DNA from: Cyclobacteriaceae bacterium
Lineage (GTDB): Bacteria > Bacteroidota > Bacteroidia > Cytophagales > Cyclobacteriaceae
Length of the DNA stretch: 64,000 nt
NCBI GenBank assembly: GCA_041746855.1
Contig: JBGTGG010000143.1
Location: forward strand, 2,155 to 66,154
Direction of reading: 5' to 3'
This document shows positions 3,601-22,596 of this stretch, piece after piece; position 1 is the stretch's first letter; every line of letters starts with the position of its first letter. A program made the position numbers and the translations under genes. The notes under the pieces are model-generated. The model was not told where the DNA came from. It did no database searches and saw nothing but the letters and a program-made list of their open reading frames with translations.

Positions 3601-6600
3601 GTTTTGATACACTGCCGCCAATCGTAAGTGAGCCACCCAATCCGGTGCTTGGGCGGGTAACCATATAGATCTGCCCGTTATGTGAGAGCGATGCTGGGGA
3701 AGTACCATTTCCATCAGGTGTATTGGACCACGTGTTAGTTAAGTTAAGCGCACCGTTTGCTTTTGTGTAATACATTTGGCCTATGTTGGTGGTCACCCCC
3801 AGCAACGTAGAAGCAGCCGATTTATTCCCGGAAGCATCAAAGGCTTTAACCGTAAAGTTATACAGGGTGCCGGGCTCCAGGCCGGTGGCCATATAGCTGG
3901 CAACTGTAGTCGAATCAACTATGGTGTTATTGATCAATATTTCATACCCGGCAACCGCTACGTTATCGGTGGAGGCTGTCCAGCTAAAAGCAACGTTGGA
4001 ATACGTTTTACTGATTTCGGTGAGGCCAGCGGGAACAGTAGGCGCTTGGTTATCCGTAGCGGTTGTGGCATCATCTGTATTGCTGAATTCAGAAGTGCCA
4101 TTGTCATTGATGGATTTAAGTTTGTAAAAATAGGTAGTGCCGGCTAAGACCGTGTTATCAGTAAACGACAAACCTTCCGTACGGTTAATGATGTTGTAGG
4201 TACCATCAATAGCAGTTGACCGGTATACCTCAAATTCTACTGGGTCGCCCGCGTAGTCCCATGACAAATCAATGCTGGTCATGCCACTGGCTAACGCTTC
4301 GAGATCCGTGGGAGCATCTGGGGGTGAAAGTATTGGAGCCGTTCCTGAGCGTAGCCATGCCGCTGGAATGTTAGCCCATGGGTTGGTATATGAATTCGGC
4401 CCAGTTTTCCTTCTATACTGTACTTGCAATGATTGCCCACCGGTGGATTCATTGAACAATACAACAATTCGGTGAAAACCGACTGGTAACTCTACATCGG
4501 TGCTGTTCCGCCATTGTGGGCCATGCAACCCATCATTATTGACTACGCGAAACTCAGTTACATCATTCGGGTTGAACCCTCCAATAAATAACATACTCCC
4601 ATCATCTGAATTTGTACGGAATTGATAGTAGTCATCGTGTCCAGCTTCAGTAATGTTCAGGTATCCATCAAACTTAATTTTATAAAAGTCTTCCTGGGTT
4701 GCAATACCCTGTACTCCATTTACAGGTGGGGAAGTAATAGGATTCACATTAAAGTAGGCTATTTTACCTGTAAATTCTGCAGAAGTCCAGTCGATCGGAG
4801 GATCATCGTTATTGTTTGCCGATGTAACAGGGTTAAGCGAAGACCATGCGCCTGTGGAATGTTCATAGTACAGTCCGTCAACATACGTGGTACCAATAAC
4901 CTGGTTGCTGGGGGGTGATAAATTGCCCGCAAGGTCTTCCGTTTGTACGGTAATCGCAAAAGTAGCATTAATGGCCAATCCGTCAATGGTATAGGTTGTG
5001 GATGGTGAATTGGTAAATACCGAACTGCCTCCGTAATTCACTTTGTATTGTTTTATGCCCGTATCATCTGTGCCGGCATCCCACGTAAGCGAGATTGAGT
5101 TGATGGTGTTGAAAGTAACTAAAAGATTTTGTGGAGGCGTTGGCAGTGTGCTTTCATTCGGAGTAATTACTACCAGGTTCGTGTTCAGGTCATTGCCAGG
5201 CACGTGGTTTGACCGTGCCGTATTGCTGACAGCACGTAGTTTATAGTGGTAGGTGGTGCCAGGGGATAGGTTCGTGTCCAGGTATGAAACGGCATCCTCC
5301 GCTGTCAGCGTAACGAAAGTAAAATTCGTTTCACCAGCCATTCTACGCCAAAGCTCAAATCCGGTTTCACTGGGTGAATTGTCAGTCCAACTTAAAAATA
5401 TGCTGGAAGGAGACTGGGCAACACCGGCAAAATTTCCTGGGAGGGTAATAGAAGTAGGTGGTGTATTAAACGTTACCGCTACGGGAGCAGAACTTAAACT
5501 TTGACAACCGCTGATTTCCGCATTCTTTAAGGTATAAATACCGGGCTGATCGCTTTTACGTTGGATCATGGATAGGGTGTCCTGAATAGCATTGAACTGA
5601 TCATCAAAGGTTCTGTCTGGCGTAAAAAGCACACCTTCTTTATACCAATAGTACTTTTCATTGTTCTCGCTGGATCTTAACACGACCTTATCATCATTGT
5701 TGATAGTAGGAAAAACAGTTGACCCTAATGCTTGAATGCTGGGTTTGACAGGTGTAACCTCTGTAACCACCACCGGATCGGACCACCGGTTCCAGTCGCT
5801 TTCACTGGGGTTTGCTACCCGGCTAAAACGCGCCCGATAAGTACCTGGTAACGCGGCTAGATAACTATGAGAATTGGCACCGGGGATTATTACGCCATCC
5901 TTTTCCCATTGATAGGCAAAAAAGCCCTGGGATAGGATAAGTTCAGCAGCCGCACCTGAAGTACCGCATATCTCAGGCTTTCCAAATTTAACGTGGATGT
6001 TTGATTTATCTTTTCCACGCATCCAACTAAAGAAATCCGGGTCGCCATACGCGTTATTCCACACGCCATGACCCAAGGAGGGATAAAGCGTGTAGCGAAC
6101 CTCCATTCCATTGTTACGGAAATCCTGAATTCGTGTTTGGGTTGCTGCGGGCGTTGGATTTCCATCGGTTCCTCCCTGAAAAATCCATTGGGGTATAGTA
6201 ACTAAATAAGGATATATTCCATAATTCCGAATATCAGCATCATTTACTGCCGACATAGGCAGGATGGCGCTGAATAACCATGGGGCAGTTCGTATCACTC
6301 TATAGGCACCAGCCCCACCATCGGAAAGCCCGTGGATGTAGATTTTATTTGGATCAATGTTATATTGCTGAATCAGCAAGCGGATGATGCGCACCACGTT
6401 TTCGGCCCCATTGGGTTCCTGCCAGCCTACTAAATTCTGCGGAAAAAGTACAAAGCCTGGGAAGGCGTTTGCGGGCATGGCCGGGTCATTGGGTTCCATA
6501 CCAGTCGGTGTGTTGGTAAGCACAGCCGTTTGATGTCTTCCTCCACCATGGAGCAAATTATGATCGTTGTTCAACAGCCGTAAAACTCCGGTACGGCATA

Positions 6601-7309
6601 CATCGGCAGTGGTGGTACCTTCAAAGTCTAAACCGCTAACAGTAAAAGCATTAGCTGAGACTAATGTAACAGTTCTTGTACCGTTGTAAGCAGGAACCGA
6701 TGAATTAAGAATTGCTACTTGATGATTATTGCTAAATAAGTGAGGCTCCGATGTAGTAAAACGGGTGCCTCCCGCTACACTTTCTGCAGAAATAATTCTA
6801 TAAGTACCTGCTTGCGGATTATTATCGTTAGGGTTCCAGTTATTGTTAGCCCAATATCCTGCGTTGCCCCGCTCACCAAGCCCGTGTATCATTACAATCA
6901 AGGGGTAGCCACCCTCAACACTCGGATTTGTAGGGTGGTTTTTTGGAAATAACAAGCGGTAATTCATTAGAAATTTATTGGTCCAAACTGTTTCTTCCCT
7001 TAATTGCCCTTGGGTATAATTGGTGGAATTAAATCCAGCCATACTGTAATAGCTATCGGTGAGCACCCCGTTGTTCTTGCGGAAACTGAATGTCTTGTCT
7101 TCAAGGAGCTTGAATGTCCTTTCCCCATCATCTAAGCGAATATCAACTGTTACACCTGTACCGGAAGTGAGTGGACCCGCACCTCTGGTTCCATCATTTT
7201 TATAATGGAAGTATTCCCAAGAAGGATCAATCTGCGAATAGGCGAGATTGCAAAAGGAGGTGAAAACGGAAATGAAAACGACAATTCTAGCCAACAATTT
7301 CATAAACAT
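602..7309 (-). CDS. Giant (2235 aa) T9SS-secreted multidomain surface protein. Domain order: signal peptide, alpha/beta-hydrolase (esterase), Ig-like, FN3 x2, PA14, FN3 x2, beta-helix-like region, Ig-like modules, type-A T9SS C-terminal sorting domain
   Basis: Single uninterrupted ORF. The N-terminal signal peptide is MFMKLLARIVVFISVFTSFCNLAYSQ. Hydrolase blocks are YPLIVMIHGLGERGN, the nucleophile elbow IHGLSDGG, QGGTDGNP and SLGHGVWNNAY. FN3-like segments include SSIFLSWTDNSPSETGFELWRR...TTYHYKLRAV and TSIDLSWDYAGDPVEFEVYRS...GTTYFYKLKSIN. A PA14 signature is present (see separate feature). The G/T/N/L-rich stretch GGSLTIGGSVSKLIVPAGTTLNVDNT... is typical of parallel beta-helix adhesin passengers. 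The C-terminus VYVYPNPATYDQLYV...GVYIMFIRQGNAVLQRKVILKFE matches the Por/T9SS CTD pattern. Confidence 0.9.
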   Translation of the reverse strand: MFMKLLARIVVFISVFTSFCNLAYSQIDPSWEYFHYKNDGTRGAGPLTSGTGVTVDIRLDDGERTFKLLEDKTFSFRKNNGVLTDSYYSMAGFNSTNYTQGQLREETVWTNKFLMNYRLLFPKNHPTNPSVEGGYPLIVMIHGLGERGNAGYWANNNWNPNDNNPQAGTYRIISAESVAGGTRFTTSEPHLFSNNHQVAILNSSVPAYNGTRTVTLVSANAFTVSGLDFEGTTTADVCRTGVLRLLNNDHNLLHGGGRHQTAVLTNTPTGMEPNDPAMPANAFPGFVLFPQNLVGWQEPNGAENVVRIIRLLIQQYNIDPNKIYIHGLSDGGAGAYRVIRTAPWLFSAILPMSAVNDADIRNYGIYPYLVTIPQWIFQGGTDGNPTPAATQTRIQDFRNNGMEVRYTLYPSLGHGVWNNAYGDPDFFSWMRGKDKSNIHVKFGKPEICGTSGAAAELILSQGFFAYQWEKDGVIIPGANSHSYLAALPGTYRARFSRVANPSESDWNRWSDPVVVTEVTPVKPSIQALGSTVFPTINNDDKVVLRSSENNEKYYWYKEGVLFTPDRTFDDQFNAIQDTLSMIQRKSDQPGIYTLKNAEISGCQSLSSAPVAVTFNTPPTSITLPGNFAGVAQSPSSIFLSWTDNSPSETGFELWRRMAGETNFTFVTLTAEDAVSYLDTNLSPGTTYHYKLRAVSNTARSNHVPGNDLNTNLVVITPNESTLPTPPQNLLVTFNTINSISLTWDAGTDDTGIKQYKVNYGGSSVFTNSPSTTYTIDGLAINATFAITVQTEDLAGNLSPPSNQVIGTTYVDGLYYEHSTGAWSSLNPVTSANNNDDPPIDWTSAEFTGKIAYFNVNPITSPPVNGVQGIATQEDFYKIKFDGYLNITEAGHDDYYQFRTNSDDGSMLFIGGFNPNDVTEFRVVNNDGLHGPQWRNSTDVELPVGFHRIVVLFNESTGGQSLQVQYRRKTGPNSYTNPWANIPAAWLRSGTAPILSPPDAPTDLEALASGMTSIDLSWDYAGDPVEFEVYRSTAIDGTYNIINRTEGLSFTDNTVLAGTTYFYKLKSINDNGTSEFSNTDDATTATDNQAPTVPAGLTEISKTYSNVAFSWTASTDNVAVAGYEILINNTIVDSTTVASYMATGLEPGTLYNFTVKAFDASGNKSAASTLLGVTTNIGQMYYTKANGALNLTNTWSNTPDGNGTSPASLSHNGQIYMVTRPSTGLGGSLTIGGSVSKLIVPAGTTLNVDNTISAKIEVQGTGVVNLNHSTAPEFLSISPSSTINFNTYTYIPAGTYGDVNLSGTGNKNFEEGEITIMGNLTATSGIALKGVPSNASRVTVHGDITLAGTPAVVATDNALDLVLAKTGTQVLTVSGPLDLYKISTTAGTTANFLNGGSAVTINIGSPNGGGLSLANGTTLNLGNNHLVMKNAASINPAGETGRLAINGSNLTLNSSSTQNSNLYLDNALNTAGMVTTTFSGSGDLMIQSPLRITDGLKINAGEVNSDGNITLVSTEAKTAYLQEIESNGSITGAAKVERWVSAARQYRYMSSAVANMTVANWQVHMPITGPFIGTSGSQSPSMFYYVENDGGYKHYPHTGSNNTVTFQQGRGYSIFNYNGNSPLTLTMTGQPYQGSVSYTSLLTPGTGNPAANNGQGDGWNLVGNPYASAIQWNNLASDWSRSGVSPIMHIPDNTSGPLVFRTWDASTNQGTNGQNDGIISPGQAFWIQTTGAATMTVHEQAKRTNSSSFYREGGTHVNSIAVKLSNGSKEDEAYVIIGENYIDAYEPEADGMKLKNGILNLSSRSTEDVNLVFNKLSDSFCEKVVPLSIEDVAPGAYSLFFENIENMVGVGAVELTDHFTNSTLSMTGSDHYNFAVTTDAASYGVGRFTLTLHRPGIQKNAIAAIENVCGGTSASIQLTNTEKGVFYYASLQNDETPLSEIMVGDDGSVALNVPVSALQTGANSLVVRTGFSGCSNEMLSDTPLEFTYTPAPTVSVDQNYYSLCDGAQVTLKAESNPENSLRWYKDGVWLKEQTSASWLSDPITSTTRFEVAAVVNGCEGEKTTTYVEINAIPMPMIEFDGDVLEVVNDIPFGTFMQWYKDNEPLDAYDYSYKPIEEGQYTVLVSSGGCSKISDPIEYLITSTDNPLHNGFNVYVYPNPATYDQLYVKVETTSTLEATISLVDLTGRNVFDASIKGTQVNGVHKLKVSQETAPGVYIMFIRQGNAVLQRKVILKFE
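605..862 (-). other. Type-A T9SS (Por secretion tail) C-terminal sorting domain of the 2235-aa protein
   Basis: The last 86 aa are FNVYVYPNPATYDQLYVKVETTS...LVDLTGRNVF...GVYIMFIRQGNAVLQRKVILKFE. This shows the canonical YPNP, D..GR and GvYhh...... K.hh pattern of TIGR04183-type CTDs, recalled from memory of the family. Confidence 0.8.
4400..4880 (-). other. PA14-like carbohydrate-binding domain inside the 2235-aa protein
   Basis: Translation reads VDGLYYEHSTGAWSSL...FYKIKFDGYLNITEAGHDDYYQFRTNSDDGSMLFIGG...VVNNDGLHGPQ...VELPVGFHRIVVLFNESTGGQSLQVQYRRKTG. This follows the PA14/GLEYA pattern GLxYxxY ... FxGYl....G.Y.F...SDDGS.L.I.G ... L.aG.h.I.v.y.E..G...l.v. Confidence 0.7.
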
Positions 7310-7625: not shown

Positions 7626-8603
7626 ATGTCTCAACAGCCCCTCATCAGTGTTTTCATGTTAGCCTATAACCATGAAAAGTATATTTCCCAGGCGATACAA
7701 AGCATTCTTGATCAAAAAACGGATATAGCGTTTGAATTGGTTATTGGCGAAGACTGCTCAACCGATAACACCCGCGCCATTATTCTTGACTTTCAGCAGC
7801 GCTACCCACAGATCATCAGGGTCATTGAAAACACTACCAACGTAGGCATGCATGAAAATTTTCTGCGCACGCTCTTTAGCTGTACCGGAAAGTACCTGTG
7901 CATTTGCGAGGGAGATGATTACTGGGAGCATCCTGATAAATTAAACATTCAGTATCAATTCATGGAGTCACACCCTGAATATGTTTTAGTGTGTGGCAAT
8001 CACAAACGATATATTGATAATGAAAAGCGATTTGAGCGGGGCGATGCAGTTTCCGTAAGCGATCACGACATCAGTTTTGAAAAGCTTTCGCGTTTCAATT
8101 GCATTACCACGGCCACCATCATGTTCCGCAATGTATTGAAGCGCTCCGATTTTGGCGATGATTTTTATTCTATTATCAGTTGCGACTGGTACCTGTACAT
8201 GAAGTTGCTTAACCACGGTAAAATCAGGTTTATAAACCATGTGTTTGCCGTGTACCGGATCAATGATGGAAGTATAAACGGAAGGACCAACCGGCTGGCC
8301 ATCGCGAAAAAAGAAATGGATTTTTTGAAGTTGGTAAAAACAGGAAGTTTGCTTGCGTTAAACGATAGCAGCACAGAAAAACTTGAGACGTCCATCATCT
8401 TTAAACATTATGATTTAGCCAGCGCCCATGCCTTGAACAGAAACCGGAAAGAGGCTATCGGGTTGTGCTTATATGCCTTTAAAAATAAGCCTTTGAGCAA
8501 AGACGGGTTCGTTCAATTGGTCAAAACATCTATCCAGATTATCAGTCCGGGTTTGTTTCAGGCGCTTCGAAGAGTAAAACGCAAAGTAGTGATGGCGGAA
8601 TAG
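7626..8603 (+). CDS. Glycosyltransferase family 2
   Basis: The N-terminal GT-A signature is ISVFMLAYNHEKYISQAIQSILDQKT...ELVIGEDCSTDNT, with the acidic motif CICEGDDYW. Confidence 0.85.
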   Translation: MSQQPLISVFMLAYNHEKYISQAIQSILDQKTDIAFELVIGEDCSTDNTRAIILDFQQRYPQIIRVIENTTNVGMHENFLRTLFSCTGKYLCICEGDDYWEHPDKLNIQYQFMESHPEYVLVCGNHKRYIDNEKRFERGDAVSVSDHDISFEKLSRFNCITTATIMFRNVLKRSDFGDDFYSIISCDWYLYMKLLNHGKIRFINHVFAVYRINDGSINGRTNRLAIAKKEMDFLKLVKTGSLLALNDSSTEKLETSIIFKHYDLASAHALNRNRKEAIGLCLYAFKNKPLSKDGFVQLVKTSIQIISPGLFQALRRVKRKVVMAE

Positions 8604-8731
8604 CGTCATTCACGTCATTGTGCAATGGGAAATTGACTTTAAGATGACTTCTATATTAGATAATATCAAAACTAACCATAATTTTGAGGTTGAGCATTTC
8701 GATGCATACGTATTCATATATTTAGTACACC

Positions 8732-9811
8732 ATGATTCCTGTAACCAAGCCATTCCTTCCGCCACAACACGAGTACCAAAAATACCTGGATGGAATCTGG
8801 CAACGCAATTGGTTGACCAATAATGGTCCGTTGGTAAACGAGTTGGAGTTAAAACTAAAGGAATACCTGAAGGTTAATCACCTGCTTTTTTTAACCAATG
8901 GAACCATTGCCATTCAGCTTGCCATTAAGGCGCTGGATTTAAAAGGCGAGATCATTACCACGCCCTTTTCATACGTGGCCACTACCAGCAGTATTGTATG
9001 GGAAGGATGTAAACCCGTGTTTGTTGACATTGACAAGGATACGCTCAATCTCGACCCAAGAAAAATTGAAGCGGCCATAACGGCCAACACTTCTGCTATT
9101 ATGGCCACGCATGTGTACGGCAATCCATGCGATATAGAATCCATTAATGCCATTGCTGTAAAGCACAATTTGAAAGTAATTTATGATGCAGCCCATGCCT
9201 TTGGTACAACATACAAGGGCAAGTCGGTTTTCGAATTTGGTGATATCAGCACCGCAAGTTTTCATTCCACTAAACTATTTCATACAATAGAAGGCGGAGC
9301 AGTAATTACAAAGTCACCGGAACTATTAAAGCGGTTGGCCTATATGAGGAACTTTGGTCATGATGGACCGGAGAAATTTGCTGAAGTAGGGATCAATGGA
9401 AAGAATTCTGAATTTCATGCAGCCATGGGGTTGGTAAATCTTTCATACATTGAGGCCATTCGCAACGCTAGAAAAGTGCAAAGCGAGTATTACGATAAGG
9501 TGCTGAAAAACCTGAAGTGTCAGAAGCCGACCATCGAGAAAGAAGCTACTTTTAATTATGCTTATTACGCAGTGGTAATGCCAACCGAAGAAATTGCCCT
9601 GCGGATGGTGGAAGAGTTAAACCGAAATTTGATTTACCCGCGCAGGTACTTTTTCCCTTCCCTCGATGAATTGCCGTATTTAGACAGGGCGGAATTGTCA
9701 ATAACCCGATCCGTGTGCAACAGGGTATTGTGCCTGCCGTTGTACCATACGCTTACCTATGAAGAAATTGACTTTATAGCGCGGATCATGTTGAGGGTTC
9801 AAAATAACTGA
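8732..9811 (+). CDS. DegT/DnrJ/EryC1/StrS-family PLP-dependent sugar aminotransferase (PglE/WecE-like)
   Basis: The start MIPVTKPFLPPQHEYQKYLDGIWQRNWLTNNGPLVNELE is typical of the family. Also present are ATHVYGNPCD, DAAHAFG and the Schiff-base lysine context SFHSTKLF. Confidence 0.85.
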   Translation: MIPVTKPFLPPQHEYQKYLDGIWQRNWLTNNGPLVNELELKLKEYLKVNHLLFLTNGTIAIQLAIKALDLKGEIITTPFSYVATTSSIVWEGCKPVFVDIDKDTLNLDPRKIEAAITANTSAIMATHVYGNPCDIESINAIAVKHNLKVIYDAAHAFGTTYKGKSVFEFGDISTASFHSTKLFHTIEGGAVITKSPELLKRLAYMRNFGHDGPEKFAEVGINGKNSEFHAAMGLVNLSYIEAIRNARKVQSEYYDKVLKNLKCQKPTIEKEATFNYAYYAVVMPTEEIALRMVEELNRNLIYPRRYFFPSLDELPYLDRAELSITRSVCNRVLCLPLYHTLTYEEIDFIARIMLRVQNN

Positions 9812-9813
9812 AT

Positions 9814-10458
9814 GTGTTAGTAGCCGGAGCCAGCAGACACGCAAAGGAAGTACTTGATATACTGCATGCACAGCATCAAGCAGATGATCTGCGATTCTTT
9901 GATGATGTGAATGTGAATGGGCCGAACCTTTTTTACGAGCGTTTTCCAATCGTTCATAGTATTCATGATCTCCTAGATATTTTTAAACAAGATAATCGAT
10001 TCATTTTAGGATTAGGCGGTGTGCAGGCAAGGGCTGTGGTGGCAAAAAAATTAGTGAAAGCCGGTGGGCGTTTGCATTCACTTATTGCGGACTCTGCACG
10101 CATTGGTCATTTTGAAGTTACGATTGGGGCAGGTGTTAACATCATGGAGTTTGTGTTGATAAGCAGTAGCGTGGTGATTGGGGAGGGAAGTCTTATCAAT
10201 GCATTCGCAGCCATTCATCACGATGTTAAGGTAGGTGCGTATTGTGAAATTTCTCCCCGGGCTACTTTACTAGGCGGAGCCTCTGTTGGTGATTTTAGCA
10301 GTGTCGGAAGTGGCGCAAGTATTCTCCCGAATATAAGCGTTGGAAGAAATGTGGTGATTGGAGCGGGAAGTGTGGTAACCCATGATGTTCCTGATCACTG
10401 TATGGTGGTGGGGGTTCCTGGGAAGGTGATCAAAAAGATTTCTCCACCTATTTCTTAG
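9814..10458 (+). CDS. NeuD/PglD-family sugar N/O-acetyltransferase (left-handed beta-helix)
   Basis: GTG start 2 nt after the aminotransferase stop. The N-terminal segment VAGASRHAKEVLDIL is Rossmann-like. The C-terminal hexapeptide repeats are IGEGSLINAFAAIHHDVKVGAYCEISPRATLLGGASVGDFSSVGSGASILPNISVGRNVVIGAGSVV. Confidence 0.8.
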   Translation: MLVAGASRHAKEVLDILHAQHQADDLRFFDDVNVNGPNLFYERFPIVHSIHDLLDIFKQDNRFILGLGGVQARAVVAKKLVKAGGRLHSLIADSARIGHFEVTIGAGVNIMEFVLISSSVVIGEGSLINAFAAIHHDVKVGAYCEISPRATLLGGASVGDFSSVGSGASILPNISVGRNVVIGAGSVVTHDVPDHCMVVGVPGKVIKKISPPIS

Positions 10459-12335: not shown

Positions 12336-13658
12336 CTATTCTATAGGAAGAACCCACGCTTCTTTGAAAGTAAACCGGTTAATTGTCCGGATTTCATCTC
12401 TCATCCGTTTCGCTTCATCAAGGTCTGCAGTGGCCTTTCCGACATACACGAAATGGTAATTATTGGCCGGGTATTCTCCGATGTTGGCGGTATAACCGGC
12501 TCTGGACAAATCTCTCACAAAACTTTCCGCATTACGCTGAGAGGAGAATACACCCACAATTACGTAGTAAAGCGTTTGTGATTCAGGTTGTGGCTGTACT
12601 TCTTCCGGTTGTTTTTCTTCAACAGGAGGAACAGGTGTTGGTTTGACTTCTTCAACGGGTGGCTGCACTGGTTCTTGTACCGGCTCTTCTTCAATTACCG
12701 GTTCCTGAACGGGCTCCTCTATTGGTAAAGGGGTAGTGGTGGTTCGTGTTGGTCGGGTTACTTGCTTCTTGCCCAGGCGCACACTTACGTGTACCTCGTG
12801 CGATCCGGTGCCAAAACCCTCTACAACATCGGGGGCAAATTCGTAGGCATACCCCACCTTTATTTTTTCTTTAAGAGAGAAACCAAAGAAAGCAGCGGGC
12901 CCGTAATCCTGTCTGTAGGAACCACCTGCCCATAGCAGGTTATTAATTTTTAGAACACCCATTACTTCAAATTGATTTTCTCGAATTTCGTTTGTTCTGT
13001 ATATGAAGTAGGGTTCAAATGCGAGCCGGTCACTGAGATTGAAATTGTAACTAATGGATGAGAAAGTATTTTTCAGCGCATTAAATTCCGGGGTATTAAA
13101 AGTATTTTCCGAGATAGCGTTGGTGGTGAAAAGGTTGGGCAGGGCAAATCCTAATTTCAGGTTATTTAATTGGTAATGCATACCGAACTGTCCAGCGAGG
13201 TTTGAAGTATTCACGTTTGTTAAAGAGGGGTCAGTAGGGTCGTCCACTTTGCTTAAGTCAACCCGGCTCATAGAATATCCCATTGACAAACCAAACCCGA
13301 TTTTATGATTGACTTCCGTGCTTCTACCTAAATATACATGGTAAGCAAAGGAAGCAAGTCCTGTATTGGTTTGGAGCACCCCGGCCTGGTCATTATACAG
13401 GTTAATGGCCCAACCCATTTTATAATTAATCGGCATTTGCAGGTTTGCGGTAAGGGTAGTTGGAGCACCCTCAAATTGAGCCCATTGCTTACGGAAGTTT
13501 AGGTTTAATTCACTATAGCCATTAGGGGCAATAAAGGAAGGGTTGAACAAATAAGGATTTAGAAAATAGTGATTATAAACCATGTTTTGTTGAGCCATTA
13601 CCTGGCTTGCCACAACCTGAAAAAGAATGAAAACTAATAGGGTCCTTAAAAATGTCAT
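12336..13658 (-). CDS. PorP/SprF-family T9SS outer-membrane beta-barrel protein fused to a Pro/Glu-rich linker and a C-terminal SPOR (peptidoglycan-binding) domain
   Basis: Signal peptide plus the canonical PorP/SprF N-terminus QQNMVYNHYFLNPYLFNPSFIAPNGYSELNLNFRKQWAQFEGAPTT. The body has alternating beta-strand character up to about aa 296. The linker is EEPVQEPVIEEEPVQEPVQPPVEEVKPTPVPPVEEKQPEEVQPQPE. The SPOR-like tail is YYVIVGVFSSQRNAESFVRDLSRAGYTANIGEY...YHFVYVGKATADLDEAKRMRDEIR...FKEAWVL. The start lies only 6 nt downstream of the type-B-CTD cargo gene. Confidence 0.85.
   Translation of the reverse strand: MTFLRTLLVFILFQVVASQVMAQQNMVYNHYFLNPYLFNPSFIAPNGYSELNLNFRKQWAQFEGAPTTLTANLQMPINYKMGWAINLYNDQAGVLQTNTGLASFAYHVYLGRSTEVNHKIGFGLSMGYSMSRVDLSKVDDPTDPSLTNVNTSNLAGQFGMHYQLNNLKLGFALPNLFTTNAISENTFNTPEFNALKNTFSSISYNFNLSDRLAFEPYFIYRTNEIRENQFEVMGVLKINNLLWAGGSYRQDYGPAAFFGFSLKEKIKVGYAYEFAPDVVEGFGTGSHEVHVSVRLGKKQVTRPTRTTTTPLPIEEPVQEPVIEEEPVQEPVQPPVEEVKPTPVPPVEEKQPEEVQPQPESQTLYYVIVGVFSSQRNAESFVRDLSRAGYTANIGEYPANNYHFVYVGKATADLDEAKRMRDEIRTINRFTFKEAWVLPIE
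12339..12575 (-). other. SPOR-like domain (aa ~362-440 of the PorP/SprF protein)
   Basis: Shows the pattern YYVIVG.F....NAE.....L...GY.A.I......Y.V.VG......EA......I......FK.AWVL. This matches the RNP-fold SPOR consensus as I remember it from FtsN/CwlC-type and Bacteroidota SPOR proteins. Confidence 0.7.
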
Positions 13659-13664
13659 GAAAGT

Positions 13665-16600
13665 TTATCGGATTAAGGTTACCGAACCATTAATGGGCTT
13701 CTTATCGGGACAACGAATAACGTAAAAATAAACACCCTCAGGAAGTAAGGAGCCATTAAAAGTTCCATCCCATTCGGTGGCGTATCCTATTGATGAAAAT
13801 ACTTTTTGGCCCTGACGGTTAAAGACCTCTACAGTGCCGTCAACCAAAAGGTCGGCATTGTTAATGCGCCATGTTTCCGTACTGATATCTCCTTTACCAT
13901 CTGGCGAGAAGGTATTAAAGGGTTTCACATTTAGACTTTCTTCCTGTACCTGTAGGTTTACGACATCGCTTGCGGTTAGTCCTTCCCCATCAGTGACACT
14001 TACAGTGAATTGATACATCCCGGGGATAAGATCAGTAAGTTCTAAAAAGAGCGTATCATGTGGATCGATCGTTACTACATTTCCTCCGGTTTGAGTCCAT
14101 AAATAGGAAGAAATAATTCCATCAGGGTCAAAGGCTTCTGCTATAATCTTAATTGAATTTTCAGGAAGTTGTATACTACGGTCTCCCCCTGCATCAACCA
14201 CAGGAGGCAGATTGGATGCAGCTGCGGAAAAAACGCTAACGGCAGCATTATCAGAATTGGTTAGTCCTTCATCATCCGTGGCTGTTAATTGGAATACATA
14301 ATTCCCTTCAACTAAATCACTAAGCGATAATGTAGTAGTTGTGTTTCCTGCCATGGTTACGGTAGGTCCTGAAAGTTTTGTCCAAAGAACAGCGGCAATG
14401 GTTCCATCATCGGTAGTAGTACCGGTTAGCACAGCGGTGTTTGTTGGTAATACAACATTGATATTGATGCCGGCATTAACAACTGGGGCAAGGTTCGTTG
14501 TGGCAGGCAAAACCGTTACCAGAACCTGCCCAGAGCCGGTAGCCCCGAGATTGTCTGTAACGGTTAACATGAATTGATAGGTACCCTCAACCATATTCGT
14601 AACGGTTAGCGAAGCAGTATTTTCATTGACAAGGGTGCAGGAGGGTCCACTTAATTTTGCCCAATTATATGCAGCAATGGTGCCATCAGGATCATTACCT
14701 GTACCGTTAAGTATTACACTGTTGGTAGGAAGTTTTATTGTCTGATTTGCACCGGCATTGGCAAAGGGGGATTGATTTGCCGTTGCCGCATTTACGGTTA
14801 CCCGGGCTTCATCAGACCCCGTTGATGATTGATCATCTGTTGCTGTAAACCTGAATATATACACCCCTTCAACAAGGTTATTTACGGTAAGCAAAGTAGT
14901 AGTAGCATTAACTAATACGGCACCTGCCGGTCCGCTCACCTGTGTCCAAGCGCGACTCACGATTGTTCCATCCGGATCACTGGCGCTGCCCGAAAGCTGA
15001 ACGGTGTTAATTGGAAGAAAAATTGTCCTATCGGGTCCTGCGCTAACGATCGGAGATTGATTAACCGAAGTAGGATTTACGGTAATGGTCATATCATCGG
15101 TAGCCGTAGCTCCATCGTTATCGGTTACTTGTAATCTGAAGGTGTAAACGCCTTCCACCAGATTGGAAACGGAAAGGGTGGGGTTGGTTAATGCTCCCAG
15201 CGTAACGGTTGGACCGGAAACTTTTGCCCATAAATACGAAGCTATGGAGCCATCGGCATCGCTACCAGACCCGTTGATATTTGCACTATTGGTGGGTAAT
15301 GTTATCGTTAAATTTGGTCCGGCATTCGCAATGGGAGGCTGATTGACGGTTGCCGCATTTACAGTAATGGTGACATCGTCCGTGCTGGTTGCTCCATCAT
15401 CATCGGTGACTATTAATCGAAAAACATAAACACCTTCTACCATATCAGCAATGGAGAGTGTAGCGTTGTTAGTATTGGTCAGGGTGGCTGTTGGTCCACT
15501 TTGCTTCGTCCATAGATAGGAAACCACGATACCATCAGCATCACTACCGGAGCCAAACAGGGTGATGCTATTGGCTGGTAACGTTATTACCTGATCGGGT
15601 CCCGCAAATGCCTGTGGGGGTTGATTGATTGCTGCGGGCAATACGGTTACTGTCACCTGAGCTAATGCTGTTAGACCTTCATTATCGGTGACCGTAAGCC
15701 GGAATACATAAATGCCCTCTACCATGTTGCTGACAGAGGTAGTAGGAAAATTTGCATTGGTTAAAGTGGCAGCAGGTCCACTTACCTGGCTCCATAAGTA
15801 AGATGCAATTGACCCATCGGGATCCGAGCCTGTACCAATAAGGTTGGTTGAGTTGACTGGAAGGGTTAGTGTTTGATTTGCACCCGCAGAAGCAACCGGA
15901 GGCTGATTAACCACCGCTGGATTAACGGTAAGGGTAACATTATTGGAGCCGGTTGCCCCATCATTATCGGTTACGGTTAAGCGGAAAATATAGATACCAT
16001 CAGAAGGTACTTGCACTGTTAAAGTTGCCGTATTGGCATTGGTGAGCGTGGCTGCCGTGCCACTTATTTGCACCCAGGTGTAACTGACTATGGTGCCATC
16101 TGGGTCAACGCCTGAACCGTTAAAGTTGGTGGAGTTAGTAGGCAGGGTAATGGATTTATTCGGGCCGGCATTTGCTGTGGGTGATTGATTGGTAGCTGAT
16201 TGTACCACAACATCCACTTCGTCAAATGCAGTTGCCCCATCATTATCGGTAGCGGTAATTCTAAAGGTATAGGTTCCCTGAATAAGATTACTTGCCGTTA
16301 ACGAAGCAGTTGTTGCCCCGCTCAAGGTTGGACTCCCGGGGCCTGAAACGTTGGTCCATAAGTAGGAATCTACGGTGCCATCCGAATCCGATGCTACTGC
16401 ATTCAGAATAACTGTTGAAGTGGGCAATGTTATGGTTTGGTCTGCAGGCGCATTGATTACGGGTGGTTGATTTCCAGCAAAAACAAAAACGGTAACCTCA
16501 TCACTTGCTGTAGCTCCTAGATTATCAGTTACGGTGATGCGAAACACATATGTGCCTTCCTCCAAGTCGTTTAATGAAAAGTTTGCTGTCGTATTTCCTG

Positions 16601-18902
16601 TGCCTGAGAATGTTGGTCCACTGATTTTCAGCCATTGGTAGGAGGCAATTGAACCATCAGGGTCGCTTGCTGTCGCCTGAAGGATTGTACTATTACTTGG
16701 CAGGGTGAGGGTTACATCTGATCCGGCATTCACAACCGGGGATTGATTGATAGCCGCAGGTAAAACTGTCAACGTCATTTGATCTATACCTGTTGCCCCT
16801 TGGTTATCAGTTACGGTTAATAGGAATACATAGCTTCCTTCTATAAGCCCTGAAGCTGTCAGGTTAGCAGTGGTTTGATTTGAAAGCGTGGCTGCGGGTC
16901 CACTTTGTTTTGTCCAACTATAGGTTGCAATCGTGCCGTCAGCATCAGTTCCGGATCCATTGATGACAATTGTATTGGTGGGTAAGGTTATGGACCGGTC
17001 GGGTCCGGCATTGGCTTGGGGAGGTACATTTACCGGAGCTGCATTTACAGTTACGGTAACATCATCAAAGCCTGTTGCCCCATTATTATCTGTTACGGTA
17101 AGCCGAAACGTATAGACACCTTGTGCCAAATTACTAACCGACACTGTTGCAGAAGTGGCATTTGTTAATGTTGCTGTTCCTGGTCCGTTAACCTGCGTCC
17201 ATAAATATCCAGTTACGGAACCATCGGGATCAGACCCAGATCCAATTATATTTATTGAGTTGGTTGGAAGTGTGAGTGTAATATTAGCCCCTGCATTGGC
17301 AGTAGGAGATTGGTTTGTGCCAACAACATTAACGGTAGCTTCTTCAAATGCTGTTGCACCACTATTGTCCGTTACAGTAAGTCGCACAACATAGGTACCT
17401 GCAACTAGGTTTGACATGGTTAAACTCTGCGTAGTGGCGTTGGTCAGGGTAGCCGTTGGTCCACTTACTTTTGTCCACTGGTATGCAGCAACCCAACCAT
17501 CCGCATCACTTCCCCATCCATTTAAGGTAACTGAGTTTGTAGGAAGGTTAATGGTTTTATTGCCCCCCGTATGTGCCGTGGGGGGTTGATTAACTACTGC
17601 TGCATTGACGGTAACGATAACATCATCAGATCCGGTAGCTCCAAAATTATCGGTAACGGTAAGCCTGAAAACATAAATTCCCGCTACAAGACCACTCAAA
17701 CTTACGGTGGATGTTGTTGAACCCCCTAGTGTGGCAGCAGGGCCACTGACTTTTGTCCAGAGGTAAGACGAAATGGAGCCGTCCGGGTCGGATCCACTTC
17801 CCACGAGATTAAGGGAATTTGTTGGTAAAGTAATCGTTCTATCAGCGCCCGCATTCGCCACTGGATTTTGGTTACCACTAAAAACCGAAATTTTTACATC
17901 ATCAGAACCAGTCTGTGAAGCACTGTTGGTTGCTGTAAGCCTAAACGTGTAAACTCCCTCCACCATATTCGCCAACGAAAGGGTAGGTGTATTTGCATTT
18001 GTCATGGTAACAGCAGGCCCACTTACTTTAGTCCATGCGTAGGATGTAATGGATCCTGTGGTGGTTGAGGCTGCACCAGTAACAGTAGTTGAGTTTGTTG
18101 GTAGAGAAATGAATTTATCAGCCCCTGCGCTTACTGAGACACCTTGTTTAACCTGCTCCATCAACCATTCGTACAGATTTGGGCTATGTAAAGAATTATC
18201 TGTTCGATAAGCATAGTTCCAGGCATCGTGCCATACACCAGGATAGATTGTATAAATAGTTGGAGGAATAATCGCAGGAACGCAAGCATTAATAGCGTTA
18301 ATCATGTTCGTGGTTCTATAAATAGGAACCACTGAATCTGCATCTCCATGAAATGCCCAAATAGGAATGTTGTTTTGCTGATAGGTGCAGGCCCAGGAAA
18401 GGGTGTTATACCCTCCACATATGGGAGCTAAAGCGGCAACCTTTTGAGGAAAGCTTCGCGTATAGTCCCATGCACCCCCACCCCCTAAACTTAAGCCTGT
18501 TATATAAATTCTTGTTGGATCAACACGTAGGTAGCTTCTAACGTACTCAACAACCTCATCCATGTACCAGACTGGCCAGGAACCAAAATTGCTTTTCAGT
18601 TGAGGGGATATTAGGATAAATGGGAACTTGTATCCTTCAACAACATACCTCGGAGGACCATTGTATGCAACCATGGGAAGATCGGTGGTTCCATTGCCTC
18701 TCTCTCCCATACCATGAAAGAAGATTACAATGGGATAATTATTGGAGTTTGAATTATAGTCAGGAGGCAGGTATTCATAAAAGCCGATTTGGCTGGTAGG
18801 AGTAATTTTTGCGGTTTGGTTTTGTGCCAGCAAGGGAACTGACATAAATACTACAGCGAACATGGATAATATCCCCTGGGTAAAGCGCAATCTGTTGGAC
18901 AT
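13665..18902 (-). CDS. Giant (1745 aa) T9SS cargo. Domain order: signal peptide, alpha/beta-hydrolase (esterase), 15 tandem PKD-like (KIAA0319-type) Ig repeats, type-B T9SS C-terminal domain
   Basis: Uninterrupted ORF. Hydrolase blocks are YPIVIFFHGMGERGNGT, the nucleophile elbow ITGLSLGGGG, FHGDADSVVP and GVWHDAW. These are followed by 15 repeats and a C-terminal FSPDGKGD...ETWRI......V.VFNRQGQKVF......WDGTFNG..LPEGVYFYVI....K...GSVTLIR segment. Confidence 0.9.
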   Translation of the reverse strand: MSNRLRFTQGILSMFAVVFMSVPLLAQNQTAKITPTSQIGFYEYLPPDYNSNSNNYPIVIFFHGMGERGNGTTDLPMVAYNGPPRYVVEGYKFPFILISPQLKSNFGSWPVWYMDEVVEYVRSYLRVDPTRIYITGLSLGGGGAWDYTRSFPQKVAALAPICGGYNTLSWACTYQQNNIPIWAFHGDADSVVPIYRTTNMINAINACVPAIIPPTIYTIYPGVWHDAWNYAYRTDNSLHSPNLYEWLMEQVKQGVSVSAGADKFISLPTNSTTVTGAASTTTGSITSYAWTKVSGPAVTMTNANTPTLSLANMVEGVYTFRLTATNSASQTGSDDVKISVFSGNQNPVANAGADRTITLPTNSLNLVGSGSDPDGSISSYLWTKVSGPAATLGGSTTSTVSLSGLVAGIYVFRLTVTDNFGATGSDDVIVTVNAAVVNQPPTAHTGGNKTINLPTNSVTLNGWGSDADGWVAAYQWTKVSGPTATLTNATTQSLTMSNLVAGTYVVRLTVTDNSGATAFEEATVNVVGTNQSPTANAGANITLTLPTNSINIIGSGSDPDGSVTGYLWTQVNGPGTATLTNATSATVSVSNLAQGVYTFRLTVTDNNGATGFDDVTVTVNAAPVNVPPQANAGPDRSITLPTNTIVINGSGTDADGTIATYSWTKQSGPAATLSNQTTANLTASGLIEGSYVFLLTVTDNQGATGIDQMTLTVLPAAINQSPVVNAGSDVTLTLPSNSTILQATASDPDGSIASYQWLKISGPTFSGTGNTTANFSLNDLEEGTYVFRITVTDNLGATASDEVTVFVFAGNQPPVINAPADQTITLPTSTVILNAVASDSDGTVDSYLWTNVSGPGSPTLSGATTASLTASNLIQGTYTFRITATDNDGATAFDEVDVVVQSATNQSPTANAGPNKSITLPTNSTNFNGSGVDPDGTIVSYTWVQISGTAATLTNANTATLTVQVPSDGIYIFRLTVTDNDGATGSNNVTLTVNPAVVNQPPVASAGANQTLTLPVNSTNLIGTGSDPDGSIASYLWSQVSGPAATLTNANFPTTSVSNMVEGIYVFRLTVTDNEGLTALAQVTVTVLPAAINQPPQAFAGPDQVITLPANSITLFGSGSDADGIVVSYLWTKQSGPTATLTNTNNATLSIADMVEGVYVFRLIVTDDDGATSTDDVTITVNAATVNQPPIANAGPNLTITLPTNSANINGSGSDADGSIASYLWAKVSGPTVTLGALTNPTLSVSNLVEGVYTFRLQVTDNDGATATDDMTITVNPTSVNQSPIVSAGPDRTIFLPINTVQLSGSASDPDGTIVSRAWTQVSGPAGAVLVNATTTLLTVNNLVEGVYIFRFTATDDQSSTGSDEARVTVNAATANQSPFANAGANQTIKLPTNSVILNGTGNDPDGTIAAYNWAKLSGPSCTLVNENTASLTVTNMVEGTYQFMLTVTDNLGATGSGQVLVTVLPATTNLAPVVNAGININVVLPTNTAVLTGTTTDDGTIAAVLWTKLSGPTVTMAGNTTTTLSLSDLVEGNYVFQLTATDDEGLTNSDNAAVSVFSAAASNLPPVVDAGGDRSIQLPENSIKIIAEAFDPDGIISSYLWTQTGGNVVTIDPHDTLFLELTDLIPGMYQFTVSVTDGEGLTASDVVNLQVQEESLNVKPFNTFSPDGKGDISTETWRINNADLLVDGTVEVFNRQGQKVFSSIGYATEWDGTFNGSLLPEGVYFYVIRCPDKKPINGSVTLIR
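13668..13934 (-). other. Type-B T9SS C-terminal domain (gliding-motility-associated CTD type)
   Basis: The last 89 aa are FNTFSPDGKGDISTETWRINNADLL.DGTVEVFNRQGQKVFSSIGYATEWDGTFNGSLLPEGVYFYVIRCPDKKPINGSVTLIR. They follow the FSPNGDG.ND.W.I / V.I.NRWG..V / WDG...G..lP.GtYfY.i / G.v.l.R pattern of TIGR04131-type CTDs. A PorP/SprF gene lies immediately downstream, as expected for type-B cargo. Confidence 0.8.
13935..18140 (-). repeat. Array of 15 tandem coding repeats of about 93-95 aa (about 280-285 bp) each, PKD-like Ig domains
   Basis: I counted 15 consecutive units of the form NQ(S/P)P.ANAG.(D/N).(T/S)ITLPTNS..L.GSGSDPDG(S/T)I.SY.W(T/S)(K/Q)VSGP.ATL.N..T.T.(S/T)VSNLVEG.Y.FRLTVTDN.GATG.D.V.VTV in the translation. 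The units are diverged, at roughly half identity by eye, and are not identical DNA copies. Confidence 0.85.
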
Positions 18903-19340: not shown

Positions 19341-20483
19341 TCATGATTTCAATGTTTCATGATAAACCCGTTCATATATCTCCATCGTTTTCTCGGCAGC
19401 GCGTTTCCATTGAAAATTTTGAACTTGTTTCAGTCCTTCGTCACAATGTTTTTCCAGCAGGTTTGGACTTTCTAATAATTCCAATATGGCATCGCTGATA
19501 TTTTTCACGTTATAGGGGTCGATCAGTTTAGCTCCATTTCCTGCAATCTCCGGAAGTGCTGATATATTGGAGGTGATGACCGGTACCCCACACGCCATGG
19601 CTTCCAGTACAGGCATGCCAAAACCTTCCGATAGAGAGGGGAATAAAAAAAGCTTACTCAACGAGTAAAGATGCACCAAATCATCCTGACTAATATATCC
19701 GGGTGAATGAATATGACTGGCAAACTGGGTGGCTCCGGATTTTTTCAGATACTCTAGAATAAACTCTTGTGTTAATCCTGGGGTGACCAGGGGAAGAGGC
19801 TTTGGCGACTTCTGGGAATACATTATAAAAGCCTCTAAAACACGCTCAGGGTTTTTTCGGGATGAAGTATTGCCGAGGAAAAGAATAAAGTTATCAGGGA
19901 GTCGGTATTTTAACTGAGTTTCTCTAAGGATTTCGCGGTCAGTAGTTTTTATAAATCGTGCGTTAACGCCATTGTGTATTACGTGAATTTTTTTCTCATC
20001 GATCTGTAAACGTTCGATCATTCTTTTTTTTTCGTAATGCGATACGGTGATAATAGCTTTACTTTTTTTACATACCCGAGGAACAATAAATCTACGATAC
20101 AAATTTCCATATCGTTGATAAGGTGAATCGGAATTGGGAATTGGGTCTAGAAAGATAACATCGTGAAGCGTTTGAATAATGGGTTTGCCACAATACAGTG
20201 GGGTCGTATTACCGGTGCAATGGAGGATATCAAGGTGTTCATCATTTGCTGCGATGGGGAGAAAAAATTGCTCAAAATCGAAAAATAGTCTTCCTTTAAC
20301 TGTTCGTACTTTAAATTCCTTGTTATTGTTTAACTGGCCGCTGGCGTCACCTTTTGCCGTTAAAATAACAATTTGATGACTTGTCTTCAAGTTGTACAAT
20401 TCAGTAATAAGCTCATTGGCTGAGATTTCAATTCCAAATTTTTTTTCTCGAAAAAGACGCTGAACCTCTATACCAATTTTCAT
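19341..20483 (-). CDS. Glycosyltransferase family 4 (GT-B, Glycos_transf_1)
   Basis: The C-terminal motif is LFLFPSLSEGFGMPVLEAMACGVPVITSNISALPEIAG (E-x7-E region). Confidence 0.85.
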   Translation of the reverse strand: MKIGIEVQRLFREKKFGIEISANELITELYNLKTSHQIVILTAKGDASGQLNNNKEFKVRTVKGRLFFDFEQFFLPIAANDEHLDILHCTGNTTPLYCGKPIIQTLHDVIFLDPIPNSDSPYQRYGNLYRRFIVPRVCKKSKAIITVSHYEKKRMIERLQIDEKKIHVIHNGVNARFIKTTDREILRETQLKYRLPDNFILFLGNTSSRKNPERVLEAFIMYSQKSPKPLPLVTPGLTQEFILEYLKKSGATQFASHIHSPGYISQDDLVHLYSLSKLFLFPSLSEGFGMPVLEAMACGVPVITSNISALPEIAGNGAKLIDPYNVKNISDAILELLESPNLLEKHCDEGLKQVQNFQWKRAAEKTMEIYERVYHETLKS

Positions 20484-21409
20484 TAATTTATTTTTTTAAA
20501 AAATCTAATTTCGGTTCCATTTACAGTGTGCCCAAGATTCCAGGAAATCCCTTTCCAATAAGCTTTTAGGTGATCATATTCATTTCTAACGATAAAGCTG
20601 ATTGTATTTTTCGGAATCGAAATAAAAATCAAAAAAAAGGGCCAGAACAATTTACTTATTCCTGAAACATTTCTTCTCATAAATAGGATCCGGTTCCTGG
20701 CCAGATAATATGTTTTTAAAACTGAATTTTTTCCAACGGACAATGATTCTTTATGATAGATGACGGCTTGCGGCTCATAGTAGATTTGGTATCCCGCCTT
20801 TTGTATCCGCGAAGACCAATCGAGTTCTTCATAATACAGGAAAAAGATATCTGCGAACATTCCGGTTTTTTCAACAACTTCTTTTTTTAGGAACATGGCC
20901 GCTCCATGGGCGTACGGTGTGTATCCTGGACTGTCGTATTGGCCTTTGTCAACTTCAAGATCGCCAATGGAATTATTTCTACCGGTTACTGGATGAATTC
21001 TAGTAAAACCAGCGTACTGAATTACATTTGGTTGAAAGAAATATTTTATTTTTGGGCTAACCACACCAATTGAAGTGTCTCTTAAAAACGGTGCCAATAA
21101 TTTTTCAAGCAAGTCAGGCGTTACTTCAGTGTCATTATTGACTAAAAAAAGATAATCACCATTGGCCGCTTCAATTCCGGTATTATTTCCACCAGTAAAT
21201 CCCAAATTCCTCTCATTGACGATTAGTTTTACGTCAGGATAATTCTGGTAGATTATTGTAGTTGGATTTTCTTTGGATCCATTATCGACTACTATGATCT
21301 CAAAATTTCTATAGGTTAGATTTTTGGTTGATTCAAGAAATTGACACGTTACTTCTGTGCCATTAAAATTTACAGTAATAATTGAAACGAGTGGATTTTC
21401 AATGTTCAT
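20483..21409 (-). CDS. Glycosyltransferase family 2 (rhamnosyltransferase-like)
   Basis: Motifs VSIITVNFNGTEVTCQFLES...FEIIVVDNGS, GFTGGNN and LFLVNNDTEV. The stop overlaps the GT4 start by 1 nt. Confidence 0.85.
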   Translation of the reverse strand: MNIENPLVSIITVNFNGTEVTCQFLESTKNLTYRNFEIIVVDNGSKENPTTIIYQNYPDVKLIVNERNLGFTGGNNTGIEAANGDYLFLVNNDTEVTPDLLEKLLAPFLRDTSIGVVSPKIKYFFQPNVIQYAGFTRIHPVTGRNNSIGDLEVDKGQYDSPGYTPYAHGAAMFLKKEVVEKTGMFADIFFLYYEELDWSSRIQKAGYQIYYEPQAVIYHKESLSVGKNSVLKTYYLARNRILFMRRNVSGISKLFWPFFLIFISIPKNTISFIVRNEYDHLKAYWKGISWNLGHTVNGTEIRFFKKIN

Positions 21410-22583: not shown

Positions 22584-22596
22584 GTGATAGAAAAAT

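Follow-up and report, generated by a model that had tools for sequence, protein, structure and literature searches.

We examined a 64,000-nucleotide (nt) stretch of contig JBGTGG010000143.1 from the Cyclobacteriaceae bacterium assembly GCA_041746855.1 (hereafter the window), in which a 440-amino-acid (aa) open reading frame (ORF) with an ATG start encodes a type IX secretion system (T9SS) outer-membrane barrel that continues, within the same polypeptide, into a low-complexity linker and a SPOR-fold domain. An initial annotation, made from the sequence alone, had proposed this three-part architecture, and profile searches bear it out and add the minus strand, no strand having been given before. 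PF11751 (PorP_SprF, Pfam) matches aa 21-292 with 188 bits (E = 3.3e-55) against a cut-off of 22.3 bits, covering 271 of 273 profile positions; TIGR03519 (NCBIfam) scores 199 bits against a cut-off of 90.55 bits; and PF05036 (SPOR, Pfam) matches aa 361-424 with 27.9 bits (E = 2.9e-6), above its gathering cut-off of 21 bits. The linker, predicted initially at ~65 aa and rich in P, E, V and Q, comprises 64 residues (P16, E14, V10, Q8, T8; net charge -10), with the octapeptide EEPVQEPV starting at both aa 314 and aa 324. None of the domains of the lipoprotein PorE (TPR, WD40/PD40, CarboxypepD_reg and OmpA_C) was found by Pfam in the window protein.

Structure prediction divides the protein in the same way. 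In a full-length AlphaFold2 (AF2) model built on 60 homologues, with a mean predicted local distance difference test score (pLDDT) of 81, 14 beta-strands occupy aa 50-294, mostly at pLDDT ~85-95, followed by an unstructured stretch at aa 300-360 (pLDDT ~42) and a confident b-a-b-b-a-b unit (b, strand; a, helix) at aa 363-439 (pLDDT >90). The top Foldseek matches of the barrel in the PDB are themselves 14-stranded barrels, namely OmpG, FadL and the T9SS shuttle PorV (8gl6_F, 6h3i_F). Outer-membrane barrels with an even strand count have both termini on the periplasmic side. The even count of 14 strands in the model thus leads one to expect a periplasmic C-terminus, as the initial annotation had argued, and both barrel termini, hence also the linker and the SPOR domain, are predicted to face the periplasm; SprF has likewise been described as 14-stranded (PMC9143113).

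Modeled alone with AF2 (pLDDT 88.7), the C-terminal domain adopts a ribonucleoprotein (RNP)-like b-a-b-b-a-b fold, a four-stranded antiparallel sheet backed by two helices. Its top Foldseek match is the SPOR domain of CwlC (1x60; E = 1.1e-4, TM 0.66/0.69), and further SPOR domains, those of DedD (6ztg, rank 2), RlpA (6i05, rank 11) and DamX (2lfv, rank 17), lie among the top 17. A profile of the domain searched against all PDB chains retrieved SPOR domains only (CwlC, E = 1.5e-5; FtsN, 0.46), a clearer outcome than that of a single-sequence phmmer search with the SPOR region, which gave a marginal CwlC match (E = 0.0075). The initial annotation had made its model depend on a significant SPOR match or fold for these residues, and the Pfam score and the CwlC match now provide both.

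The barrel gene is paired with a cargo gene. Directly upstream, on the same strand and with 6 nt between its stop and the PorP start, lies the gene for a 1745-aa protein that had been taken initially as a T9SS cargo with a C-terminal domain (CTD) of type B, an assignment upheld by matches to PF13585 and TIGR04131 (Table 1). The initial annotation had suggested surveying PorP/SprF homologues for SPOR domains and for the cargo they accompany; beside the family size reported below, this survey yielded a uniform pairing, the TIGR04131 type B CTD ending the upstream ORF in 34 of 34 loci that have a usable upstream ORF, at gaps of -4 to +17 nt. The passengers vary by locus, from esterase-like hydrolase with PKD repeats to pectate lyase with InlB-type repeats, GH44 and BNR/sortilin-type propellers. 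Judged by their sequences, every one of them has the look of a polymer-degrading enzyme carried on a repeat stalk, and none of those at the loci examined resembles a SprB-type motility adhesin. Scanning the surroundings of the operon for sigma-70 promoters and terminators gave nothing beyond shuffled expectation, with a tool that does not cover Bacteroidota promoters.

Table 1. Features of the PorP-SPOR locus and its surroundings, in window coordinates
Feature	Position	Strand	Evidence
PorP-SPOR gene, 440-aa ORF, ATG start	12336..13658	-	
Sec-type signal peptide, aa 1-22, MTFLRTLLVFILFQVVASQVMA with QQ after the cleavage site	13593..13658	-	translation; cleavage site inferred by eye; helix at 2-17 in model
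PorP/SprF outer-membrane beta-barrel, aa 21-294, 14 predicted strands	12777..13598	-	PF11751, TIGR03519, AF2 model, Foldseek
Low-complexity P/E/V/Q/T linker, aa 299-362, duplicated EEPVQEPV	12573..12764	-	composition, repeat positions, no predicted secondary structure
C-terminal SPOR-fold domain, aa 363-440, Gln-less subtype	12339..12572	-	PF05036, b-a-b-b-a-b model, Foldseek, PDB profile match
Cognate cargo gene, 1745 aa: carboxylesterase-like a/b-hydrolase head, ~15 PKD-like repeats, type B CTD	13665..18902	-	Pfam, NCBIfam
Cargo type B CTD, aa 1661-1745	13668..13922	-	PF13585 CHU_C, 72.8 bits, aa 1661-1739; TIGR04131, 47.4 bits, aa 1663-1745
2235-aa secreted protein: S9/esterase-like head, fn3 + Ig repeats, type A CTD (Por_Secre_tail)	602-7309	-	
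Glycosyltransferase, aminotransferase (DegT) and acetyltransferase genes	7626-10458	+	
Glycosyltransferase, aminotransferase (DegT) and acetyltransferase genes	19341-23682 (gene list applies to this and the preceding row jointly)	-	

Both the gene for the large secreted protein with a type A CTD and the glycosyltransferase, DegT and acetyltransferase genes that flank the cargo-shuttle pair are syntenic in relatives, and the flanking genes may constitute a surface-glycan locus.

The PorP-SPOR fusion is a conserved family and not an isolated accident. A search of a large protein collection returned 176 relatives; PF11751 and PF05036 are found together in most of the 120 that were listed (identity 40-69%). 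Clustered at 90% identity, proteins combining the two domains make up more than 100 clusters, and the named ones are all Cytophagales (Cyclobacteriaceae, Ohtaekwangia, Chryseolinea). Pfam SPOR matches 59 of 60 sampled homologues (best E-value, 2.4e-10), and all 60 possess the linker, which measures 59-120 aa (median 80), is rich in E, P, V, K, Q and T and is conserved in composition but not in sequence. The SPOR part has a mean column identity of 61%, and the barrel is conserved too; with both domains conserved and only the composition of the segment between them, the pattern is the one expected of a spacer joining two functional domains. In the databases, these proteins bear only the generic label "PorP/SprF family type IX secretion system membrane protein."

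In a genome scan with one genome per species, in which full-length and barrel-only matches were told apart, every full-length match came from a Cytophagales lineage or from one of several metagenome-assembled genomes (MAGs) that are unclassified or of doubtful label. Carriers comprise Cyclobacteriaceae and "Flammeovirgaceae" MAGs, Chryseolinea, Fulvivirga, Rapidithrix, Mangrovivirga and Marinigracilibium, as well as Ohtaekwangia koreensis and O. kribbensis with three PorP-SPOR loci each; the Flavobacteriales and Bacteroidales matches cover the barrel alone.

A few loci depart from the common form. In Mangrovivirga halotolerans (L046 8001-9572) and Marinigracilibium pacificum (L048 7977-9593), the ~120-aa linker is almost pure (PE)n/(PEPV)n, the SPOR domain is missed by Pfam and found by the family profile at E~1e-11, and the type B cargo gene (1037 aa, FG-GAP-like repeats by eye) lies 8 nt downstream, not upstream. 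Two barrel-only PorP genes, L045 7411-8331 (Ohtaekwangia sp.) and L047 8010-8924 (a Roseivirgaceae MAG), nest within the SPOR-fused clade of the barrel tree, which suggests secondary loss of linker and SPOR; at L047, OmpA-domain ORFs lie ~1-4 kb away on the opposite strand. We also considered the C-terminal domain as a barrel plug or a surface domain and rejected both placements, since a disordered stretch of 59-120 residues lies between it and the barrel in every member, and since the strand count is even.

A link between PorP and the cell wall has been proposed before, for two separate proteins. In Porphyromonas gingivalis, PorP, the lipoprotein PorE and PG1035, the only type B cargo, form a complex in which PorE is proposed to bridge PorP to peptidoglycan through its OmpA_C domain (PMC9143113), a domain essential for PorE function (PMC12773672). 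Both PorP with PG1035 and SprF with SprB exemplify a barrel that takes up the type B CTD of its cargo and keeps it at the surface (PMC9143113). Five operons of Flavobacterium johnsoniae, reported in 2025, encode a cargo, an SprF-like and a PorE-like protein, for which static, wall-anchored complexes were proposed, and mobile cargo such as SprB has no PorE-like gene in its operon (PMC12618676). The initial annotation knew of no wall-binding function connected with PorP/SprF proteins. That claim of novelty falls for the two-protein version, and only the single-polypeptide SPOR fusion appears undescribed; the wall tether it predicted survives as the most reasonable reading, although as an idea it is not new, and its opposition of static cargo to mobile, SprB-like cargo coincides with the model already published for PorE-like operons.

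Against this background, the neighbors of the fused genes are informative. An OmpA-domain profile detected no OmpA-like ORF at distances of up to ~8 kb from the ~42 loci with a SPOR fusion, nor anywhere in the 64-kb window. An OmpA-like-domain gene stands directly downstream in 7 of 7 barrel-only Flavobacteriales loci and in L052, and the downstream gene at L056 has, by Pfam, the full PorE architecture of TPR, PD40, CarboxypepD_reg and OmpA. Adjacent PorE-like genes and cis SPOR fusions do not co-occur at the loci examined.

OmpA domains are themselves found fused to PorP barrels. The gene L053 8001-9416 (MAG Bacteroidia Co_bin.40) encodes PorP_SprF, a linker and OmpA (55 bits), and a search with its product returned more than 100 clusters combining PF11751 and PF00691, in Crocinitomicaceae, Parvicella, Reichenbachiella and Fulvivirga (P0121-P0226). 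The two PorP-OmpA genes whose context was checked (L084 1297-2694; L085 6001-7371) start 4-10 nt after a CHU_C cargo gene. P0231, a 665-aa protein (L086 2203-4200), consists of PorP_SprF, CarboxypepD_reg and OmpA and so amounts to PorP joined to PorE's C-terminal half; the P0231 gene stands after another PorP gene, a bare one, and adjoins gldN. Another variant, the 734-aa P0235, has bMG3/SdrD_B between PorP and OmpA. In a rough neighbor-joining tree of the barrels, without support values, the SPOR-fused proteins form one clade and most OmpA-fused proteins another; Fulvivirga marina carries both types (L038, SPOR; P0144, OmpA). The separate barrel clades imply that the SPOR and OmpA fusions arose independently, and such independent joining of one barrel type to two unrelated wall-binding folds, at the same operon position, is good comparative evidence that wall attachment is under selection.

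We therefore propose, as a reading we consider reasonably probable, that PorP-SPOR is a cargo-specific T9SS shuttle and a wall anchor in one polypeptide, the cis counterpart of PorP plus PorE. Of the features on which this proposal is built, the domain architecture, the predicted fold and number of strands, the pairing with cargo genes, conservation across the family and the parallel fusions are shown by the present analysis. After Sec export, the N-terminal 14-stranded barrel would insert in the outer membrane, where it would receive the type B CTD of the upstream 1745-aa esterase-like PKD protein and hold it at the surface, as characterized PorP/SprF proteins do. The acidic, Pro-rich ~64-aa linker would hang into the periplasm and cross the gap between outer membrane and wall; fully extended, 64 residues span up to roughly 20 nm by estimate. 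The SPOR-fold domain would then bind the sacculus and immobilize the shuttle-cargo complex, so that the surface enzyme would stay static and be retained on the cell, neither carried on gliding tracks nor shed. Both the binding of peptidoglycan by this SPOR subtype and the static behavior of the cargo are inferred.

The SPOR domain itself differs from its characterized relatives in one telling position. The Gln at RlpA Q270 (= FtsN Q251) is the only highly conserved side chain of SPOR domains and hydrogen-bonds the lactyl group of N-acetylmuramic acid and the N-acetyl group of N-acetylglucosamine; the remaining SPOR-glycan contacts are mostly through the backbone, with a basic patch in addition (PMC6895207). 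In HMMER alignments, this position coincides with the second V of the family motif "YVVVGAF," which is I367 in the window protein; among 60 family members, V stands there in 54 and I in the other 6, with no Q. The same holds in the wider subfamily, whose best 150 representatives contain 198 domain copies, with V or I at position 367 in 186 of them and Q in 2. At positions 372, 399 and 432, candidates for the basic patch on the sheet face, most family members have K or R, but S372 and N399 stand in the window copy; the positions aligned to FtsN R285 are hydrophobic. The window copy is also atypical in lacking an 11-aa segment (consensus L.G..L.PG) before strand beta1 (window 12540-12575, aa ~358-363) that all other aligned family members possess. 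Finally, PII-like proteins are interspersed among the Foldseek matches of the C-terminal domain, below CwlC, and the RNP-like fold is also found in proteins that do not bind glycans. Each of these points counts against the proposal of a wall anchor. With the conserved Gln replaced by Val or Ile, denuded-glycan specificity and septal or polar placement are therefore not transferable from FtsN-type domains, and the initial annotation, which had argued from SPOR by way of denuded glycans to a septal or polar site, is correspondingly weakened on this point.

The domain recurs across a large group of proteins. An exhaustive HMMER search of representatives with the domain profile gave 2,092 matches at E<=1e-3 and 264 at E<=1e-10 (the SPOR profile run against a 5.8-billion-protein index returned only 12 short fragment-like matches, uninformative on architecture). 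In the PorP-SPOR family, Y365, G369, F371, A377 and W435 are invariant, and Y365 is kept in 181 and W435 in 173 of the 198 copies from the best 150 representatives. PorP barrels account for 76 of these 150, bearing one (63), two (9) or three (4) SPOR copies in tandem; other carriers among them are DUF5723 with SPOR, TPR with 3-4 SPOR and SPOR with OmpA. By sequence, this is a coherent and distinct SPOR subfamily, and its tandem copies, varied carriers and co-occurrence with OmpA fit a wall-binding module.

Some of the individual carriers deserve mention in their own right. In P0272, P0294, P0297, P0298, P0312 and P0316, a Gln-less SPOR domain forms the C-terminus of a DUF5723 protein (PF18990) of ~600-650 aa; DUF5723 shows a weak TraF_2 match and may represent a further family of outer-membrane barrels tethered to the wall. 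Tandem-SPOR PorP barrels include P0256, P0258, P0263 and P0396, the last a 1067-aa protein with three copies, and P0323 combines TPR with 3-4 SPOR domains. SPOR copy number may tune avidity for the wall.

The alternative that survives best, unlikely as we consider it, takes the SPOR-fold domain as a protein-interaction or other non-peptidoglycan module, docking for example on the periplasmic GldK/GldN (PorK/PorN) ring and resembling SPOR only through the shared RNP-like fold. PorP has been reported to contact PorK (PMC9143113), and the mean column identity of 61% is far above the <20% pairwise identity among typical SPOR domains (PMC6895207); together with the absent Gln and the invariant aromatics Y365 and W435, this would suit a protein-binding surface. 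The loss of the Gln is tempered by the backbone nature of most SPOR-glycan contacts, and the likeness to SPOR goes beyond the fold, with 59 of 60 members passing the Pfam SPOR gathering score, PDB sequence matches to SPOR only, and SPOR as the best structural match, with three more listed. A docking module also fits less well with the presence of the subtype on unrelated carriers (DUF5723, TPR and OmpA proteins) and in 2-4 tandem copies, as is typical of wall-binding modules, or with OmpA fusions occupying the same position.

Less likely again is that the domain is a true denuded-glycan reader that recruits the shuttle-cargo complex to septa or new poles after amidase action. Every characterized SPOR domain, that of Cytophaga CHU2221 included, is found at division sites and has denuded glycans as its ligand (bioRxiv 10.1101/2022.07.01.498525; PMC6895207); a Cytophaga SPOR domain binds them with a dissociation constant of ~0.8 uM (bioRxiv 10.1101/2022.07.01.498525), a result that counts for the wall anchor as well. 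The Gln in contact with the exposed lactyl carboxylate is, however, absent here. The OmpA_C domain of PorE and of the parallel fusions binds stem-peptide-bearing peptidoglycan generally, according to PMC7192894, which suggests that generic anchoring has been selected, and three shuttles for different enzymes in some genomes are hard to square with septal targeting. We give little credence to the remaining alternative, a generic envelope staple like OmpA or Pal that stabilizes the link between outer membrane and wall without cargo-specific effect: although barrel, linker and wall-binding domain make up the classic OmpA layout and the same SPOR subtype also occurs on DUF5723, the strict coupling to a type B cargo gene (34/34), the several cargo-specific paralogues per genome and the lack of overlap between adjacent PorE-like genes and cis fusions tie the module to T9SS function.

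Returning to the proposal of a shuttle and wall anchor in one polypeptide, we add a broader and more speculative possibility, of which we are doubtful as a whole. In it, the Gln-less SPOR domain (signature Y-[VIL]-[VI]-V-G-x-F ... W) would tether barrels to the wall specifically in Bacteroidota and would recognize a ligand other than the denuded glycans read by FtsN-type domains. The module chosen for a PorP/SprF shuttle (no module, PorE supplied in trans, OmpA fused in cis, or 1-3 copies of SPOR in cis) would then act as a genetically encoded address that makes type B cargo mobile, static or placed at a wall region.

The attachment of type B T9SS cargo to the surface, and the reason why some of it moves and some stays, are under active investigation. 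Two lines of evidence carry the current model of a PorE link between PorP and wall: pull-downs in a single species and, in a different one, operon correlations. Fusions of PorP to two unrelated wall-binding folds, SPOR and OmpA_C, offer independent support of the Rosetta-stone type for that model, and the non-overlap of fusions and adjacent PorE-like genes offers further independent support. The single-polypeptide fusion also provides a simpler system for testing the static-versus-mobile cargo model. For T9SS specialists, these results are useful rather than startling. Beyond secretion, a large SPOR subfamily without the hallmark glycan-recognition residue is relevant wherever SPOR serves as a division-site-targeting marker.

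By comparison with known systems, PorP-SPOR appears to be a one-polypeptide, swapped-module variant of PorP-PorE anchoring; no description of PorP-SPOR or PorP-OmpA fusions was found in the literature searched, in which coverage of subscription journals is incomplete. The likeness to the PorP-PorE-cargo systems (P. gingivalis PorP/PorE/PG1035 and those of the F. johnsoniae Fjoh_3952/3951/3950 type) lies in a barrel encoded right after a type B cargo, a proposed periplasmic link from barrel to peptidoglycan and a likewise proposed wall-anchored, static cargo (PMC9143113, PMC12618676). It is a functional likeness only, the wall module being a separate TPR-WD40-CRD-OmpA_C lipoprotein in PorP-PorE and a SPOR fold within the same polypeptide in the window protein. 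Identical in layout are the PorP-OmpA_C fusions, such as P0121, P0144 (Fulvivirga marina) and P0151 (Reichenbachiella agarivorans), in which barrel, linker and wall module follow one another in the same order and at the same position after a CHU_C cargo, whereas the wall-binding fold, the barrel clade and, save for F. marina, the taxa differ.

SprF/SprB of F. johnsoniae shares the PorP/SprF-family barrel and the type B cargo directly upstream, but SprB is a motility adhesin moving along the cell (PMC12618676), whereas the window cargo is an enzyme on a PKD stalk. With the SPOR proteins FtsN, DamX, DedD, RlpA, CwlC and CHU2221, the window protein has in common PF05036, the b-a-b-b-a-b fold and a long, disordered, low-complexity linker to the membrane anchor (layout per PMC6895207). 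Their anchor, however, is an inner-membrane helix or a lipid, and that of the window protein is the outer-membrane barrel of a secretion system; and where canonical SPOR domains have the conserved Gln and a link to cell division, PorP-SPOR has Val or Ile, a far higher within-family conservation and no evident link to division.

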